From positions 1,742-65,741 of the forward strand of contig CAMAWM010000009.1 in NCBI GenBank assembly GCA_945861965.1: a DNA stretch of 64,000 nt, read 5' to 3'. The translations under genes and the position numbers were made by a program. Below are positions 37,391 to 43,492 of the stretch, piece by piece. The notes under the pieces are model-generated. The model was not told the origin of the DNA and searched no databases. It was given only the letters and a program-made list of their open reading frames with translations. Numbering within the stretch: position 1 is the first letter of the stretch; the number at the start of each line of letters is the position of its first letter. Source of the DNA: Chitinophaga pinensis. GTDB lineage: Bacteria; Bacteroidota; Bacteroidia; UKL13-3.

Positions 37391-38260
37391 TTACCCAATA
37401 TGCCTTTCAGCATGATACGATGAACGGACTAAAGCGCCACTTTCAACGTATTTAAATCCTTTTTCCAAACCTACTTGTTTGTAATATTCAAATTTTTCAG
37501 GGTGAATAAATTCTTCAACTGCTAAATGCATTTTTGTTGGTTGAAGATATTGACCTAATGTCAGTACATCGCAACCGTTTGAATTTAACTCGTCCATTGC
37601 TTCAAGTATTTCATTTTCGGTTTCGCCCAATCCAAGCATTATTCCGCTTTTGGTTCTCAATCCTCTTTCTTTTGTTCGCTTTATTTGCTCAAGACTGCGT
37701 TCGTATTTAGCTTGTGGCCTTACTTTTCGATAAAGTCTTGGTACAGTTTCCATGTTGTGGCTTACAACTTCTGGTTTTTCATCTATAACCTGATAAAGTA
37801 AATCCCATTTACCCATAAAATCCGGAATCAATGTTTCCATAGTTAAGGATGGATTCAACTTTTTAACCAAGCGAATTGTATCAGCCCAAACATCAGCACC
37901 TTTATCTGGAAGTTCGTCACGATTTACAGACGTAATAACCGCGTGCTTTATATTCATTAATTTAATTGCTTCCGCAACTCTCATCGGTTCGTCCAAGTCG
38001 TACGTATTGGCTCTTCCAGTTGCAACTGCGCAAAACGAACAACTTCTAGTGCAGATATTTCCAAGTATCATAAAAGTTGCAGTTCCTTCGCCCCAGCATT
38101 CGCCCATGTTTGGACAATTTCCGCTTTCGCAAATTGTATGTAGTTTATTTGAATCTACAAGCTGTCTAACTTTTCGGTAATTTTCTCCAGTAGGTAATTT
38201 TACTTTAAGCCAACTGGGCTTTCTAATTCTTTCTTCGTTTAGAATTGGCAAATCAATCAT
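37391..38260 (-). CDS. lipA: lipoyl synthase
   Basis: CxxxxCPNMGEC and CTRSCSFC clusters, VRSSYHA; start refined to ATG 38260. Confidence 0.97.
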
Positions 38261-38276
38261 GTATTTATAATAAATT

Positions 38277-39035
38277 TTATCTCTTCCAGCCAAACATAAA
38301 TGCTAAGTATACGCTGATAAAATATTGCTCTTGAGAAACATAAGCAAGCATTGGAATTCCTTTTGCAAAAGCATCTGCAGTTAAACCTACTTCAAACGAG
38401 TAATAGCTGTCTGTATATTCTCCCATTTCGATACTTAAAGCAGCTCGGCCATACAATCCCATTACAGGATCAATTTCTTTAAAACCATTACTAAAAGATG
38501 CATTTCCATAAATGTTATAAATATCGGTATGAATTGCTGGGTCGTATTTTTCTGTGGTCAAATATCCACCACGACCATCGGTTCCGTGATAAATATCTAA
38601 ATACACAGGTTTAAGAAGCGCTAAATTAATACCTGCTGCATAAATAAAATTCAATCCAATTGCATTGCGGTAGGAGCGCTCAGTTATTTCAACTTTTCTT
38701 CCAAAACCATTTCTGAAAAAGAAAACTTGATTCAGCTTTCCGTATTTAAATGTATTTGGGTTTTCATTAAAATTACTGTAGCGACTTACTTCTTTTGGAT
38801 GATTAACCCAAGTGAGTTCGGATTCGAATGTTTTTTTAATACTTCCAGTTTTATGCCAAGCGTACCTGAATTGAATTGCTGCCAACCATGCTGTAGAACT
38901 ACTATTTACATTTGCACCAAAATTGAAATCTTTATACGTGATAATTTGAGCATCAGCAATAGGTGTATTTTGCGCAATACTAAATGTTGCACTAAACAAA
39001 GCAATAAAACCCAATTTGAATTTATTTTTAATCAA
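38277..39035 (-). CDS. conserved hypothetical outer-membrane beta-barrel protein
   Basis: Signal peptide, alternating beta strands, HPKE...FKYGKLN, C-terminal [10 protein letters not shown]. Confidence 0.6.
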
Positions 39036-39073
39036 GTTGAAAAGATTAATTTTGTGTCAAAAATAATTAAAAA

Positions 39074-39481
39074 ATGGATACTGCAGAAGTAATTTATTTG
39101 GGCAATTTCAGAACCGAGTCTACTCATTTGCAATCGGGGAATAAAACAATTAGCGATGCGCCAACAGATAATTTCGGGAAAGGCGAATTCTTTTCTCCAA
39201 CTGATTTATTGGCAACTTCTCTTGCGCAATGTTTGATAACAACAATTGGAGTTCAAACAAGATTAGAGGGCATTAATATTGACGGAGCCAAACTTAGCGT
39301 GAAGAAACATATGTCTGCAAATCCAAGAAGAGTGTCGCAAATCGATATTCATATACTTGTCCCGGCTGGAAATTTAACTACAGAACAAAAAATAAAAATC
39401 GAAACGATAGCTAAGAACTGCCCCGTTGGGAAAAGCTTGCATCCCGATTTGATTCAGAATATCAACTTTGAATACAAATAA
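39074..39481 (+). CDS. OsmC/Ohr family protein
   Basis: DAP.DN.GKG..FSPTDLLA.SLA.C and A.NCPV..SL. Confidence 0.9.
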   Translation: MDTAEVIYLGNFRTESTHLQSGNKTISDAPTDNFGKGEFFSPTDLLATSLAQCLITTIGVQTRLEGINIDGAKLSVKKHMSANPRRVSQIDIHILVPAGNLTTEQKIKIETIAKNCPVGKSLHPDLIQNINFEYK

Positions 39482-39501
39482 TATTTATTTGATTGGAAAA
39501 A

Positions 39502-39585
39502 TTAAAAATTCGGGCACGCGCCTTTGCAAGATGCTATGAATAATATAGCAAAAAACAGCAAGGCTAATAATGTATTTTTTTTCAT
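39502..39585 (-). CDS. 27-aa micro-lipoprotein (not in ORF track)
   Basis: MKKNTLLALLFFAILFIASCKGACPNF*: SPII signal with IAS-C lipobox; A-rich start context; own TACTTTTG promoter. Confidence 0.75.
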   Translation of the reverse strand: MKKNTLLALLFFAILFIASCKGACPNF

Positions 39586-39623
39586 TTAGTATTTTTAATA
39601 TTAAAACTATAACGCTTATCTAA

Positions 39624-40844
39624 GTGCAAAAGTATAAAGTAACAGATGAGCTTTTAGAATTTGATTTGGAAAATTTTCTGTCGAAATATTCCGAATCCGA
39701 TTCCGATAAACTTATTCTAAAATTAAAATCTTCATGGAATGAAAATTTCGATCTTAGTTTTTTAATTCATCAACTTAAACTTTATAAAAAATGCAAGGAC
39801 AAAATTCCTTCTTTTGCCAATACTTTTTGTTGGCTGACACCTAAAAGTTATGAACAAGCATCAAGCGAGTTGTCTGCTTTATACAAATCATCCATTTTTA
39901 AAGGCGATAAATTATTTAGCGTTTGTGGCGGTTTAGGGGTTGATGATTGGGCTTTTAGCAAAACATTTTCTCAAGTAATATCCTTAGACTTAGATGAGGA
40001 GTTGAATAAATTAGTAAGGCATAATTTTAGAAAGCTGAAGATTGAAAATTTTAAAAGGATTACAACTAAAGCTGAAGATTTTATAAAGGAAGTCAACAAT
40101 AGCACTTACGATTTAATTTATATTGATGCTGATAGAAGGTCCGATTCGAAGAAAAAAAGTTTTCTTTTCGAAAATAGTTCGCCAAATCCGCTTGAAATAA
40201 TTTCTGCTTTGTTTGAACAAACTGAAACTATATTAATTAAACTTTCGCCATTAATTGATTTGAATTATTGCGAAAAAATAATTCCTCAAATTTCGAAAAT
40301 ATTCGTTATTTCTGTTGAGAATGAAGTGAAAGAAGTTTTATTAGTTTTATCTAAAACAAATACTAAGCAAATTGAATGCGAAATTCAGGCTGTAAATATT
40401 GACCCTAAAGGAATTTCTTCAGTTTTTACAGCTTTTGACAAAAAAAAGAATTGTACCTATATTGATAATGGAATCTATTTTATTGAACCTTATCTATCTA
40501 TCATAAAAGCTGGATTGGTTGCACAGTTTTCCGAATCAATTAACGCAAAAATGATTTCAAAAAATTCCAACTTTTTACTTTCAGATAGTTTAGTAGAAAA
40601 TTCAATGGGGAGATTTTTTAAAATTGTTTCCATATTAGATTTCAAGAAAAGCGAATTGAAAAAATATCTGGCTTCGAATTGTATTTCAAAAGCTAATATC
40701 AGCAAAAGAAATTTCCCCTTGAAAGTTGACGAATTGCGAAAAGTATTAAAACTAAAAGACGGGGGAGAAGATTATATTTTTTTTACTCAAAACTCTGAGA
40801 ACAAAAAGCTAGTTTATCATTGTCGAAAAATAAAAAGCGAATAG
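39624..40844 (+). CDS. class I SAM-dependent methyltransferase with THUMP-like C-terminal domain
   Basis: EQASSE, CGGLGVD, IYIDADRR, IKLSP..D, ANISKRNFP...LRK.LKLKDGG; start uncertain (possibly TTG 39666). Confidence 0.8.
   Translation: MQKYKVTDELLEFDLENFLSKYSESDSDKLILKLKSSWNENFDLSFLIHQLKLYKKCKDKIPSFANTFCWLTPKSYEQASSELSALYKSSIFKGDKLFSVCGGLGVDDWAFSKTFSQVISLDLDEELNKLVRHNFRKLKIENFKRITTKAEDFIKEVNNSTYDLIYIDADRRSDSKKKSFLFENSSPNPLEIISALFEQTETILIKLSPLIDLNYCEKIIPQISKIFVISVENEVKEVLLVLSKTNTKQIECEIQAVNIDPKGISSVFTAFDKKKNCTYIDNGIYFIEPYLSIIKAGLVAQFSESINAKMISKNSNFLLSDSLVENSMGRFFKIVSILDFKKSELKKYLASNCISKANISKRNFPLKVDELRKVLKLKDGGEDYIFFTQNSENKKLVYHCRKIKSE
39627..39634 (-). promoter_or_regulatory. Bacteroidota sigma-A -7 element (TACTTTTG-CAC) for the micro-lipoprotein
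   Basis: Perfect TAnnTTTG on the minus strand, 41 nt upstream of ATG 39585. Confidence 0.65.
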
Positions 40845-40848
40845 CTTT

Positions 40849-41406
40849 TTATTTTTTTCTTGGTCTCCATTCTGTTTCTTTTGCATTGGCATCTTTTACA
40901 ATATTTCTTGACAAAACAAACAAATAATCGCTCAATCTATTTAAGTATTTAATTACAATTGGAGAAACGGTGCTTTCGTCAGATAGTTGTACTGAAATCC
41001 TTTCTGCTCTACGGCAAACGCACCTTGCGACATGGCAAAAAGATGCCAATTGTGTTCCGCCAGGCAAGATGAAATTTTTTAATGCTGGGAGATTTTTTTC
41101 CATTCTATCAATTTCTTTTTCCAGTAATTTTATGTCCGATTCAATCAAATCCGGGATTTGCATTTTTGTATTTTTCGAGTCGTTTGCTAATTGGCTTCCA
41201 ATGGTAAAAAGCCTGTCTTGAATTTCAGATAATATTTCTGACATTTTCAAGTTTTTTAAATCGCATTTCAAAACTCCGATGTATGAATTTAACTCATCAA
41301 TTGTACCGTAAGCCTCTATTCTTAAGTGGTATTTGGGGACACGCGTTCCGCCAATCAACGAAGTTTTTCCTTTGTCGCCCGTTTTGGTATATATTTTAAA
41401 TGTCAT
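40849..41406 (-). CDS. PduO-type cob(I)alamin adenosyltransferase
   Basis: KIYTKTGDKG.T, YGTIDELNS, RCVCRRAER, YLNRLSDYLF. Confidence 0.93.
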   Translation of the reverse strand: MTFKIYTKTGDKGKTSLIGGTRVPKYHLRIEAYGTIDELNSYIGVLKCDLKNLKMSEILSEIQDRLFTIGSQLANDSKNTKMQIPDLIESDIKLLEKEIDRMEKNLPALKNFILPGGTQLASFCHVARCVCRRAERISVQLSDESTVSPIVIKYLNRLSDYLFVLSRNIVKDANAKETEWRPRKK

Positions 41407-41476
41407 CTTTTAAACAATTTAAGTGTGCAATTATAACAACAAATAGCTGTATTTTTCTAATCTTTGCGAACTGCAA

Positions 41477-43492
41477 ATGCAATTTCAACTTACTTCTGAA
41501 TACCGACCAACTGGCGATCAACCCGCTGCAATTAAATCCTTAGTGGATGGATTGATCGATGGCGAAAAAGCGCAGGTATTGCTTGGAGTAACAGGTAGCG
41601 GAAAAACTTTTACAATAGCAAATGTAGTTCAACAAGTGCAACGGCCTATTTTGGTTTTATCACACAATAAAACGTTGGTTGCGCAATTGTATAGCGAATT
41701 CAAACAGTTTTTCCCTGAAAACATAGTCGAGTATTTTGTTTCATATTACGATTATTACCAACCAGAAGCGTTTATTCCATCCTCAGGAACTTATATCGAA
41801 AAAGATTCGAGCATAAACGAAGAGATTGAAAAAATGAGATTGGCAACTATTTCATCCCTTTTGTCTGGGAGAAGAGATATAATAGTTGTGGCATCTGTGA
41901 GTTGCATCTATGGTGCAGGAAATCCAAAGGATTATGAAAATAGCATTATTCGACTTCGTGTCGGTCAAAAAATTGCGAGAAATACATTGCTGTATTCATT
42001 GGTTGATTCGTTGTACTCAAGAACAACAGCAGAATTTAATCGAGGCAATTTTCGTGTAAAAGGCGATGTAGTTGATGTATTTCTGGCTTATGCAGATTTT
42101 GCTTTTAGGATTTCATTTTTTGCAGATGAGATTGAAAGTATTGATAAAATAAATCCAATAAGCGGAAAAAAATATCAGAGCGAAAACGATGTTGCCATAT
42201 TTCCGGCAAATATATATGTAACACCTCGCGAACAGCTAAATTCTGCAATGCACGAAATTCAAGACGATCTAATAAAACAACTAGATTATTTAAAAACAAC
42301 TGGAAAATTTATTGAAGCAAAACGATTAGACGATCGTGTGAATTTTGATTTGGAAATGATGCGCGAGTTGGGTTATTGCAGTGGAATTGAAAATTACAGC
42401 CGCTATATGGATAGGAGGCAAGCAGGGGAAAGGCCTTTTTGCTTGATTGATTATTTCCCCAAAGATTTTTTATTGATTGTTGACGAAAGCCATGTAAGCA
42501 TTCCACAATTGCGAGGGATGTATGGTGGAGATAGAAGCAGAAAACAAAACTTGGTTGAGTATGGATTTCGATTACCAGCTGCAATGGATAATCGGCCATT
42601 GATGTTTAATGAATTTGAAAGCGTTGTAGGTCAAACTATTTATCTAAGCGCAACTCCTGCCGAATATGAAATAAGAGAAGCCGAAGGAGTTGTAGTTGAA
42701 CAAATAATTAGGCCAACCGGATTGCTTGATCCAATAATTGAAATTCGCCCATGTTTAAATCAAGTGGATGATTTATTAGATGAAATTGATGAAAGAATTA
42801 AAATGGGCGATCGCATTTTAATTACAACATTGACAAAAAGAATGGCGGAAGAGTTGAGTAAATACATGGCGAAATTAAATATTAAATGCCAATACATTCA
42901 TAGCGAAGTAAAGACTTTAGACAGAGTTGAGATTTTGAGAAACTTGCGACTTGGAATTATTGATGTATTAATTGGAGTCAACTTATTAAGAGAAGGATTG
43001 GATTTACCCGAAGTAAGTTTTGTAGCCATTATGGATGCCGACAAAGAAGGTTTTTTGCGTAGCGAAAGATCCTTAACTCAAACGATAGGAAGAGCTGCAC
43101 GAAACGAACGCGGAAAAGTAATAATGTATGCCGACAGAGTTACTGATAGTATGCAAAAAACCATTGACGAAACCAATAGAAGAAGAGAAAAACAAATAGC
43201 TTATAATTTATTGCACAACATTACTCCTACAACAATTAAACGAACGCGCGAAGAAATATTGAAACAAACAAGCATAGCAGATTCCAAACAACATGGTGAG
43301 GTAAATGCGTATATCGAATCATCAGAAATCAAGATTGCAGCAGATCCAATTTTAGAATATTTATCTAAAGATAAAATTAAAAAACTACTTGACGAAACTG
43401 AAAAAAGAATGAAACGAGCAGCTAAAGAAATGGATTTTATGGAAGCTGCAAGATTAAGAGACGAAATGTTTGAATTGCAGAAAATGTTGTAA
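41477..43492 (+). CDS. uvrB: excinuclease ABC subunit B
   Basis: GVTGSGKT, YYDYYQPEA beta-hairpin, DESH, QTIGRAAR, C-terminal UVR domain. Confidence 0.98.
   Translation: MQFQLTSEYRPTGDQPAAIKSLVDGLIDGEKAQVLLGVTGSGKTFTIANVVQQVQRPILVLSHNKTLVAQLYSEFKQFFPENIVEYFVSYYDYYQPEAFIPSSGTYIEKDSSINEEIEKMRLATISSLLSGRRDIIVVASVSCIYGAGNPKDYENSIIRLRVGQKIARNTLLYSLVDSLYSRTTAEFNRGNFRVKGDVVDVFLAYADFAFRISFFADEIESIDKINPISGKKYQSENDVAIFPANIYVTPREQLNSAMHEIQDDLIKQLDYLKTTGKFIEAKRLDDRVNFDLEMMRELGYCSGIENYSRYMDRRQAGERPFCLIDYFPKDFLLIVDESHVSIPQLRGMYGGDRSRKQNLVEYGFRLPAAMDNRPLMFNEFESVVGQTIYLSATPAEYEIREAEGVVVEQIIRPTGLLDPIIEIRPCLNQVDDLLDEIDERIKMGDRILITTLTKRMAEELSKYMAKLNIKCQYIHSEVKTLDRVEILRNLRLGIIDVLIGVNLLREGLDLPEVSFVAIMDADKEGFLRSERSLTQTIGRAARNERGKVIMYADRVTDSMQKTIDETNRRREKQIAYNLLHNITPTTIKRTREEILKQTSIADSKQHGEVNAYIESSEIKIAADPILEYLSKDKIKKLLDETEKRMKRAAKEMDFMEAARLRDEMFELQKML

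Follow-up and report, generated by a model that had tools for sequence, protein, structure and literature searches.

The stretch of DNA considered here, called the window throughout, is a 64,000-nucleotide (nt) part of a genome assembly of Chitinophaga pinensis (GCA_945861965.1, contig CAMAWM010000009.1, positions 1,742 to 65,741, forward strand). It carries a mini-gene of 27 codons that is the shortest, tail-less member of a family of predicted mini-lipoproteins found across the class Bacteroidia. Both the profile of the family and the syntenic slot place the open reading frame (ORF) of the window in this family. The mini-gene is very probably a real protein-coding gene, and its product is likely, judging by its signal peptide, to be the precursor of a lipoprotein processed by signal peptidase II (SPII). 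The role of the product is proposed more tentatively. A lipidated octapeptide that faces the periplasm and engages an envelope partner through its Cys-Pro-x-Phe end is the preferred reading, and the chance that it is right is put at about even.

The mini-gene lies on the minus strand at 39502..39585, starts with ATG, ends with TAA (39502-39504) and encodes MKKNTLLALLFFAILFIASCKGACPNF. Position, strand, length and peptide agree exactly with an earlier note made from the letters of the window. Codons 1-19 (39529..39585, minus strand) encode the predicted SPII signal peptide MKKNTLLALLFFAILFIAS, with a basic n-region (KK), a hydrophobic core and the lipobox residues I-A-S before Cys20. Written out around the cleavage point, the precursor reads MKKNTLLALLFFAILFIASC, followed by KGACPNF and the stop codon. 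The predicted mature octapeptide, Cys20-Lys-Gly-Ala-Cys24-Pro-Asn-Phe27 (39505..39528, minus strand), begins with the predicted lipidation site, Cys20, and contains Cys24-Pro-x-Phe, its conserved "hook". The classical lipobox rule (PROSITE PS51257 type) combines a basic n-region, an uncharged core, the pattern [LVI..][ASTVI..][GAS]-C and a Cys at residues 15-35. The window ORF follows this rule with K2 and K3, an uncharged stretch from L6 to I17 and I-A-S-C20. Applied as a regular expression, the same rule fits 40 of the 45 family loci and, for the CPAY type described below, 77 of 79. In addition, the genome itself encodes LspA (PF01252, 116.6 bits) and Lgt (PF01790, 120.9 bits), both above cut-off.

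Conservation was assessed in the 119 genomes of the same taxonomic family; the order contains the same 119. A translated search of 61 relatives with the 27 residues returned many weak full-length matches in tiny open frames, and 23 of the 30 returned loci held an ORF with M-K-K, a hydrophobic stretch and [AS]-C-K-[GS]-x-C-P-K-F. When 21 relatives are aligned, M1, K2, K3, C20, K21, C24 and P25 are invariant and K26 and F27 are conserved in at least 90%. The family profile, a hidden Markov model, gave a single match per genome at E <= 1e-8 (at least 37 bits) in 92 of the 119 genomes. The background of ordinary lipoprotein signal peptides scored E >= 7e-5, and the result is bimodal. Genera g5, g6, g7, g15 and g16 had no strong match to this profile; in g16, the slot is occupied in all five genomes inspected (out of six) by a divergent copy, in which the lipobox leads into C-H-R-Q-K-C-P-[TS]-F and a tail. 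The window ORF is the sole such match in its own genome and scored E 7.3e-12 with profile A1, which contains the window sequence and is partly circular for that reason, 1.8e-11 with profile A3 and 2.7e-8 with profile A5. A loose six-frame lipobox scan of the same 2.1-Mb genome found five other short ORFs that fit the rule, a figure that serves as a rough background only, because the spacing allowed by the expression was one residue off for the mini-ORF, which it missed. By itself, a short ORF that resembles a lipoprotein start says little, and the ORF stands above chance because its frame, lipobox and second Cys are conserved. These are the three features on which the earlier note had staked its claim, and they are kept in the relatives.

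Studies of codon usage reveal purifying selection in frame. Among the 45 distinct family loci, the eight mature codons (Cys to F/Y) have an entropy near 0 at codon positions 1 and 2 and of 0.57-1.75 bits at position 3. Pro is written with all four of its codons, and the Ser at +4 with both TCN and AGY. Neither this freedom at third positions nor the mixture of Ser codons is what a conserved DNA or RNA element would produce. By Nei-Gojobori counting in 990 pairs, the ratio of nonsynonymous to synonymous differences (pN/pS) is 0.107 for the mature octapeptide in the true frame. The other five frames gave 1.4-8.6 in four cases and 0.29 in the antisense frame that shares the wobble position. The signal peptide (pN/pS 0.46-0.56) and the tails present in other members (0.63) are far less constrained, so the selected part is the mature N-terminal octapeptide. 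The comparison of substitution rates that had been suggested as a check thus points to selection on the peptide, both across the family and among the 27-codon genes described next.

The exact 27-codon form occurs in 23 genomes of three genera (that of the window, g4 and g8), as 23 different nucleotide sequences. In all of these genes, and in all 24 short forms counted, a TAA or TAG comes directly after F; more in-frame stops follow, and there is no remnant of a tail. Genus g9 also stops after F, with a longer n-region. Among the 23 short genes, the core has a pN/pS of 0.015 at a pS of 0.60, and the flanks are 42% identical over 81 nt upstream and 37% identical over 60 nt downstream (ungapped). 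The 27-codon form is a stable state and not a fresh truncation, and the concern that the ORF might be the cut-off remnant of a longer lipoprotein is met by the shared length and the constrained core. Most relatives are 35-46 amino acids (aa) long and typically have 8-14 or more residues after F/Y, in tails that are hydrophobic or amphipathic. It follows that the 8-residue product is a derived, shortened form. The product proposed in the earlier note thus holds for the window and the other short genes, and it is not the norm of the family.

Members of the family share M-K-K, a hydrophobic core, the lipobox Cys, three to nine mostly basic or polar residues and C-[P, rarely A]-x-[Y/F], with an optional tail of 8-25 residues. 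In a sample of 401 genomes of the class, the family profile had no strong match outside the taxonomic family. Three weak matches and one locus found earlier are mini-ORFs with a lipobox, C-x4-5, C-P-A-[YF] and a hydrophilic tail, and they adjoin homologues of osmC and of p252, a gene described below. The broader profile A3 matched 279 of the 401 genomes at E <= 1e-3, noise included. A profile built from 56 sequences matched 227 of the 401 at E <= 1e-7, corresponding to 203 of 363 high-quality genomes and 102 of 200 genera; the count of 227 includes two unpublished genomes (G210 and G293), and no claim depends on either. These matches are mostly single per genome, cover nearly the whole model and lie in open frames of 40-100 aa. 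The 56-sequence profile under-detects the subfamily of the window (7 of 13, vs 12 of 13 with the family profile). Moreover, eight of ten profile-negative genomes were inspected around p252, and five of them hold a divergent copy in the slot, C-x5-9-C-[PA]-[AG]-[YV], so the family extends further than the profile matches show. Of 341 genomes sampled at the level of the phylum, a set rich in families that also have no such gene in the class sample, only that of the window and one other matched. Families f2, f11, f12, f19 and f35 gave no profile match in the class and phylum samples.

The earlier note had also mentioned mini-lipoproteins of the form SC...CP[AT]Y in Bacteroidota, and these exist. 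A scan for the pattern CKx[HR]ExCPAY in one genome per species (185,579 species) found 420 stretches, and 366 were confirmed. These CPAY-type forms are relatives of the mini-gene in a syntenic position and probably its orthologues. With a single exception, the 80 titles listed are all from Bacteroidota lineages, including Flavobacteriales, Crocinitomicaceae, Cryomorphaceae, Salibacteraceae, Vicingaceae, Sphingobacteriales, Chitinophaga and Bacteroidales. The exception, a contig of 2.8 kb that was binned as Akkermansia (L173, "uncultured Akkermansia sp."), carries a typical Bacteroidia CPAY-type mini-gene and is probably mis-binned. Some genomes have tandem pairs of mini-lipoprotein genes (L110, L114, G187, G261, G357 and G190/L222). 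In both L110 and L114, a long basic tail extends the second copy and ends in K-K-L-Y-[SA]-K-D-R-D-[LV]-F-G-N-K-R.

The family is almost absent from existing annotation. The suggestion that the gene falls below the thresholds of gene callers agrees with the databases, in which it is essentially uncalled. An exact look-up of ten forms found three, of 40-43 aa; the window peptide, the other five forms shorter than 40 aa and one form of 42 aa were absent. Every source name seen for the existing gene calls is "hypothetical protein". A search of 1.84 billion representative proteins with the family profile gave seven true short matches and one spurious protein of 2657 aa. Homologue searches gave no candidate for a 42-aa family member and only three close relatives for a 45-aa CPAY form. 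Seven mini-proteins scanned against Pfam and NCBIfam matched no model at cut-off, and the sub-threshold matches cover signal peptides only. Profile searches of the PDB (A5, A7) gave nothing below E 0.06, and the best match in an Rfam scan had E 0.62 and 15.5 bits vs a threshold of 60. The strings EKCPAY, CKSHEKCPAY, SCKGSCPKF and HERCPAY have no match in the library of papers searched. The literature consulted on small lipoproteins and small proteins of Bacteroidetes, including passages of Ryan 2020, describes no such family.

The mini-gene lies in a gap of 142 nt between two genes of the plus strand. The convergent OsmC-like gene (39074..39481) matches Pfam OsmC (PF02566, E 1.8e-13), and the divergent gene (39624..40844) encodes a THUMP-like class I methyltransferase (PF18096, PG_1098_Fer, E 1.9e-23). 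Both matches agree with the neighbours named in the earlier note. The methyltransferase starts with GTG at 39624, directly after an in-frame TAA. The start codons of the two divergent genes are separated by only 38 nt (39586-39623), and each promoter must therefore lie within the other gene. Downstream on the strand of the mini-gene are p252 (38277..39035, minus strand), which encodes a predicted outer-membrane beta-barrel of 252 aa, and the lipoyl synthase gene lipA (37391..38293, minus strand; Radical_SAM and LIAS_N), the last gene of the conserved block.

The order in the family is methyltransferase (divergent), mini-gene, osmC (convergent), p252 (on the strand of the mini-gene) and lipA. 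Neighbours were read in flanks of 1.5-2.5 kb. The methyltransferase was present in 43 of the 45 family loci, osmC in 39, p252 in 42 and lipA in 41. The synteny that the earlier note had asked about is thus kept in most loci, and the osmC/p252 slot also occurs in other families. Genus g11 has no osmC, and genus g10 has the mini-gene elsewhere with its sequence unchanged. The mini-gene also keeps its sequence in other contexts (L024 and L026) and is in this respect independent of its neighbours. Among 80 CPAY-type loci, a divergent gene resembling ung (uracil-DNA-glycosylase), labelled by sequence reading alone and not by a family-library scan, was found in 63, osmC in 37, p252 in 41-43 and lipA in 36. 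The genes that recur in these flanks are ung, the methyltransferase, osmC, p252 and lipA only; no recurrent maturase, transporter or immunity gene was found that would mark a precursor of a bacteriocin or of a ribosomally synthesized and post-translationally modified peptide.

The p252 protein has a signal peptide and no Cys, and it is conserved across Bacteroidia, usually between osmC and lipA. It matches no Pfam or NCBIfam family and has no relative in the PDB by sequence. Its Atlas model has a predicted template-modelling score (pTM) of 0.77, and its structural neighbours are clusters named outer-membrane beta-barrel (TM score 0.88). K81, K142, P143, Y145 and E215 are invariant and H79, E82, H169 and D221 nearly so, a set of polar residues that suggests a catalytic or binding site; a lipid A deacylase like PGN_1123 is one conceivable identity. 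Tandem p252 paralogues occur downstream of the mini-gene in some genomes (L172, 3310-4065 and 4143-4988; G203:C10:56513-58185). In another family, an ORF of 113 aa with the motif F-F-K-H-S-T-R-C-S-I-S lies between osmC and the mini-gene (L068, 1130-1468, minus strand); its product looks like a monothiol protein of the YtxJ/DUF2847 kind.

We infer export, lipidation, location, partner binding and thiol chemistry of the octapeptide from its sequence. The 27-aa precursor would be exported post-translationally, Lgt would add diacylglycerol to Cys20, and LspA would cleave between Ser19 and Cys20, leaving the lipidated octapeptide CKGACPNF. Surface lipoproteins of Bacteroidota, which have the phylum and the Lgt/LspA route in common with the mini-lipoprotein, reportedly carry an acidic lipoprotein export signal. 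The residues at +2 to +6 after the lipobox Cys are KGSCP in 31 of the 45 family loci and KGACP in the window, none of them acidic, and the CPAY forms have KSHEK or KTHER with a single Glu at +5. Measured against the export consensus, there is no acidic run after the Cys and surface exposure is not predicted. For the same reason the octapeptide is expected to face the periplasm from the membrane that holds it, which would most likely be the outer membrane, in its inner leaflet. Its functional part would be the Cys24-Pro-x-Phe end, only a few residues from the membrane. In the preferred mechanism this hook would dock on an envelope protein or form a disulfide bond with it, and the lipopeptide would act as a minimal lipid-tethered accessory subunit. 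A different use of the same product, as a ribosomally made thiol-lipopeptide that acts as a small-molecule-like membrane cofactor and not as a usual protein subunit, appears improbable. In that case most Bacteroidia would use a lipid-anchored Cys, kept a few residues away from the outer membrane, for some core envelope chemistry, such as thiol-disulfide exchange, the capture of an oxidant, metal or haem, or the formation of a covalent Cys adduct, and the octapeptide of this genome may be the minimal active unit.

Several observations weigh against the accessory-subunit reading. In five of the 45 family members, as in the CPAY-type loci that fail the classical rule, lipobox position -2 is occupied by E or N, which the rule disallows. 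Among the short forms, substitutions in the core are confined to the window copy (Ser to Ala at +4 and Lys to Asn at +7), which retains C, K, G, C, P and F. Tails differ greatly among lineages, being hydrophobic, basic or absent, and any docking must therefore rest on about four residues and the lipid. Two further points also count against a tie to p252: all 12 genomes sampled from family f28 have the mini-gene, but p252 was found in none of six, and the p252 of the window offers no Cys for a disulfide.

The promoter and RNA data belong with these points. The earlier note had proposed a Bacteroidota-type -7 promoter box, and TACTTTTG is indeed present at 39634..39627 on the minus strand (feature 39627..39634), with 41 nt between its G and the ATG of the mini-gene. 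The box falls within codons 2-4 (Q-K-Y) of the methyltransferase, and the closest genera likewise have it as the reverse complement of those codons. In addition, TANNTTTG is not enriched in the window, with 94 sites vs 115.7 +/- 9.9 in shuffles. The overlap with the codons and the lack of enrichment make the promoter argument weak, and the box is not independent evidence here; what stands of the claim is the box and its spacing. In 29 of the 45 family loci, TAnnTTTG occurs at a distance of 4-53 nt before the ATG, vs a chance expectation of about 2 of 45 that was estimated from the motif density of the window and applies to genomes that are related and not independent. A sigma-70 promoter scan gave one promoter-like site vs 2.5 expected, and a terminator scan gave none. 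RNA contigs came from four of eight freshwater or lake metatranscriptomes and were compared over positions 38000-42000 of the window. Contigs at 39084-39513 and 39139-39511 (X1 and X2, same study) cover osmC and end in the last 10-12 nt of the mini-ORF, and no contig covers 39514-39741. The ORF body without RNA contigs was counted among the adverse points, yet it is neutral, because depth was low (2-15) and contigs cannot show short RNAs; the gap is no evidence for or against expression. The ends of the two osmC contigs lie within 3 nt of each other (39511-39513), about 30 nt past the osmC stop, and may mark the 3' end of the osmC mRNA.

Other explanations place the mini-gene in relation to p252 or outside the cell. 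A mini-lipoprotein that is the specific partner of p252, serving it as a plug, a cofactor or an assembly factor, with both encoded in a single transcription unit, is unlikely. Such a partnership would agree with the position of p252 downstream on the same strand in most loci of both types, and in at least ten loci p252 follows the mini-gene directly, about 110-300 nt away and without an intervening osmC. Genera g5, g7 and g15 show neither gene, p252 is present in 14 of 15 mini-positive genomes from 15 families, often adjacent, and its invariant polar residues suggest a site and not a passive pore. However, in three of six f28 loci lipA follows osmC directly and p252 is missing from the slot. 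The converse is found in genus g6 (seven of seven genomes) and at loci L199, L201 and L204, where p252 occurs without a detectable mini-gene. In the window, osmC lies antisense between the two genes. The unrelated ung and lipA are linked to CPAY-type genes as often as p252 is, so the block appears to reflect mostly inherited gene order, and since f28 keeps the mini-gene without p252, the barrel is only a weak candidate partner. A lipopeptide that is released or carried by vesicles and works extracellularly, whether as signal, antimicrobial or carrier of metal or haem, has a slim chance of being the right answer. In its favour, strong constraint is limited to the very small mature part, all forms retain a single free Cys beside Pro, and the His and Glu near the Cys of CPAY-type forms could bind metal, but these two residues are absent from the subfamily of the window. 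Against action outside the cell are also the lack of an acidic surface-export signal, the flanks as read, in which no transporter, maturase or receptor gene recurs, and the character of the mini-gene, which is single-copy, vertically inherited and set among housekeeping genes.

The remaining explanations deny the mature peptide a function of its own. A role as a regulatory leader or upstream ORF, such as that of a peptide that monitors export and controls p252-lipA, is very improbable. Known monitoring peptides such as SecM and MifM have arrest motifs near the C-terminus, and C-P-x-F/Y, at or near the C-terminus of an ORF that heads p252-lipA on the same strand, is comparable in position. The convergent osmC intervenes in the window and 39 of 45 family loci, however, and the mini-gene persists where p252 is absent or where it lies elsewhere in the genome. 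Its full set of lipoprotein signal-peptide features is conserved, and a tail of 0 to about 25 residues after the motif is a misfit with a fixed arrest geometry. Equally little credence is given to a decaying remnant of a longer lipoprotein in this genome, a non-coding element or a chance ORF. The greater length of most relatives, the two substitutions unique to the window core, the ORF body without an RNA contig and the five other lipobox-like short ORFs of the genome would fit such an origin. They are opposed by the 27-codon length with its stop after F and no tail remnant in three genera, by the low core pN/pS of the short forms, by the third-position pattern and the two Ser codon families, and by the absence of an Rfam match.

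Small lipoproteins of other kinds offer points of comparison for the preferred reading. In the portions of the published accounts considered here, LptM (YifL) is an enterobacterial lipoprotein of about 6 kDa whose lipidated N-terminal peptide lies at the lateral gate of LptD and promotes disulfide maturation of LptD. LptM and the mini-lipoprotein are both small SPII lipoproteins; the docking peptide of LptM is described there as a few residues with Pro and an aromatic residue, and its tie to the thiol-disulfide maturation of a partner resembles the role proposed for the hook. Unlike the mini-lipoprotein, LptM has no second Cys and a mature part of about 48 aa, and the two have no sequence relationship. 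The seven mini-proteins scanned gave no match to PF13627, and the NCBIfam model of LptM (NF047847) reached 10.2 bits vs a cut-off of 27.7, over residues 1-20 (signal peptide) only. By analogy, the mini-lipoprotein may work like LptM without being LptM. An LptM analogue at LptD itself was considered and is weakened by a preprint with two translocon structures (Liu et al.), in which a large Bacteroidota lipoprotein, LptP, occupies this site with its N-terminus. With LptP already in place, that site is unlikely for the mini-lipoprotein.

The PG1828 family (NF050142, a model of 59 positions) consists of small Bacteroidota lipoproteins and gave the best, though weak, match among curated models. Membership was rejected, as the scores of 16.8-22.3 bits vs a cut-off of 50 come mostly from the signal peptide and a search of the genome of the window with this model misses the ORF. 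The entericidins EcnA and EcnB and Lpp are SPII products of only tens of residues, and gene callers often overlook them. Their mature parts have about 20-58 residues and are helical, in contrast to the eight residues with Cys-Pro-x-aromatic of the mini-lipoprotein. The mini-proteins match no Pfam or NCBIfam family of the entericidin or Lpp type, and the mini-family also belongs to a different taxon, Bacteroidia.

Overall, the analysis shows that real micro-genes can be recovered by reading intergenic DNA directly. Should the predicted product be made, its eight mature residues would place it with the shortest natural lipoproteins known. It would also belong to a single-copy family under very strong selection that is present in more than half of the sampled Bacteroidia and has been missed almost entirely by gene callers and curated family libraries. 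Structures of the outer-membrane machines of Bacteroidota, such as the beta-barrel assembly machine (BAM), the lipopolysaccharide translocon, the type IX secretion system and SusCD, are now appearing, and their maps contain unassigned density. A lipidated, conserved peptide with a free Cys would be a concrete candidate for a small subunit that such machines still lack, or for their redox handle.

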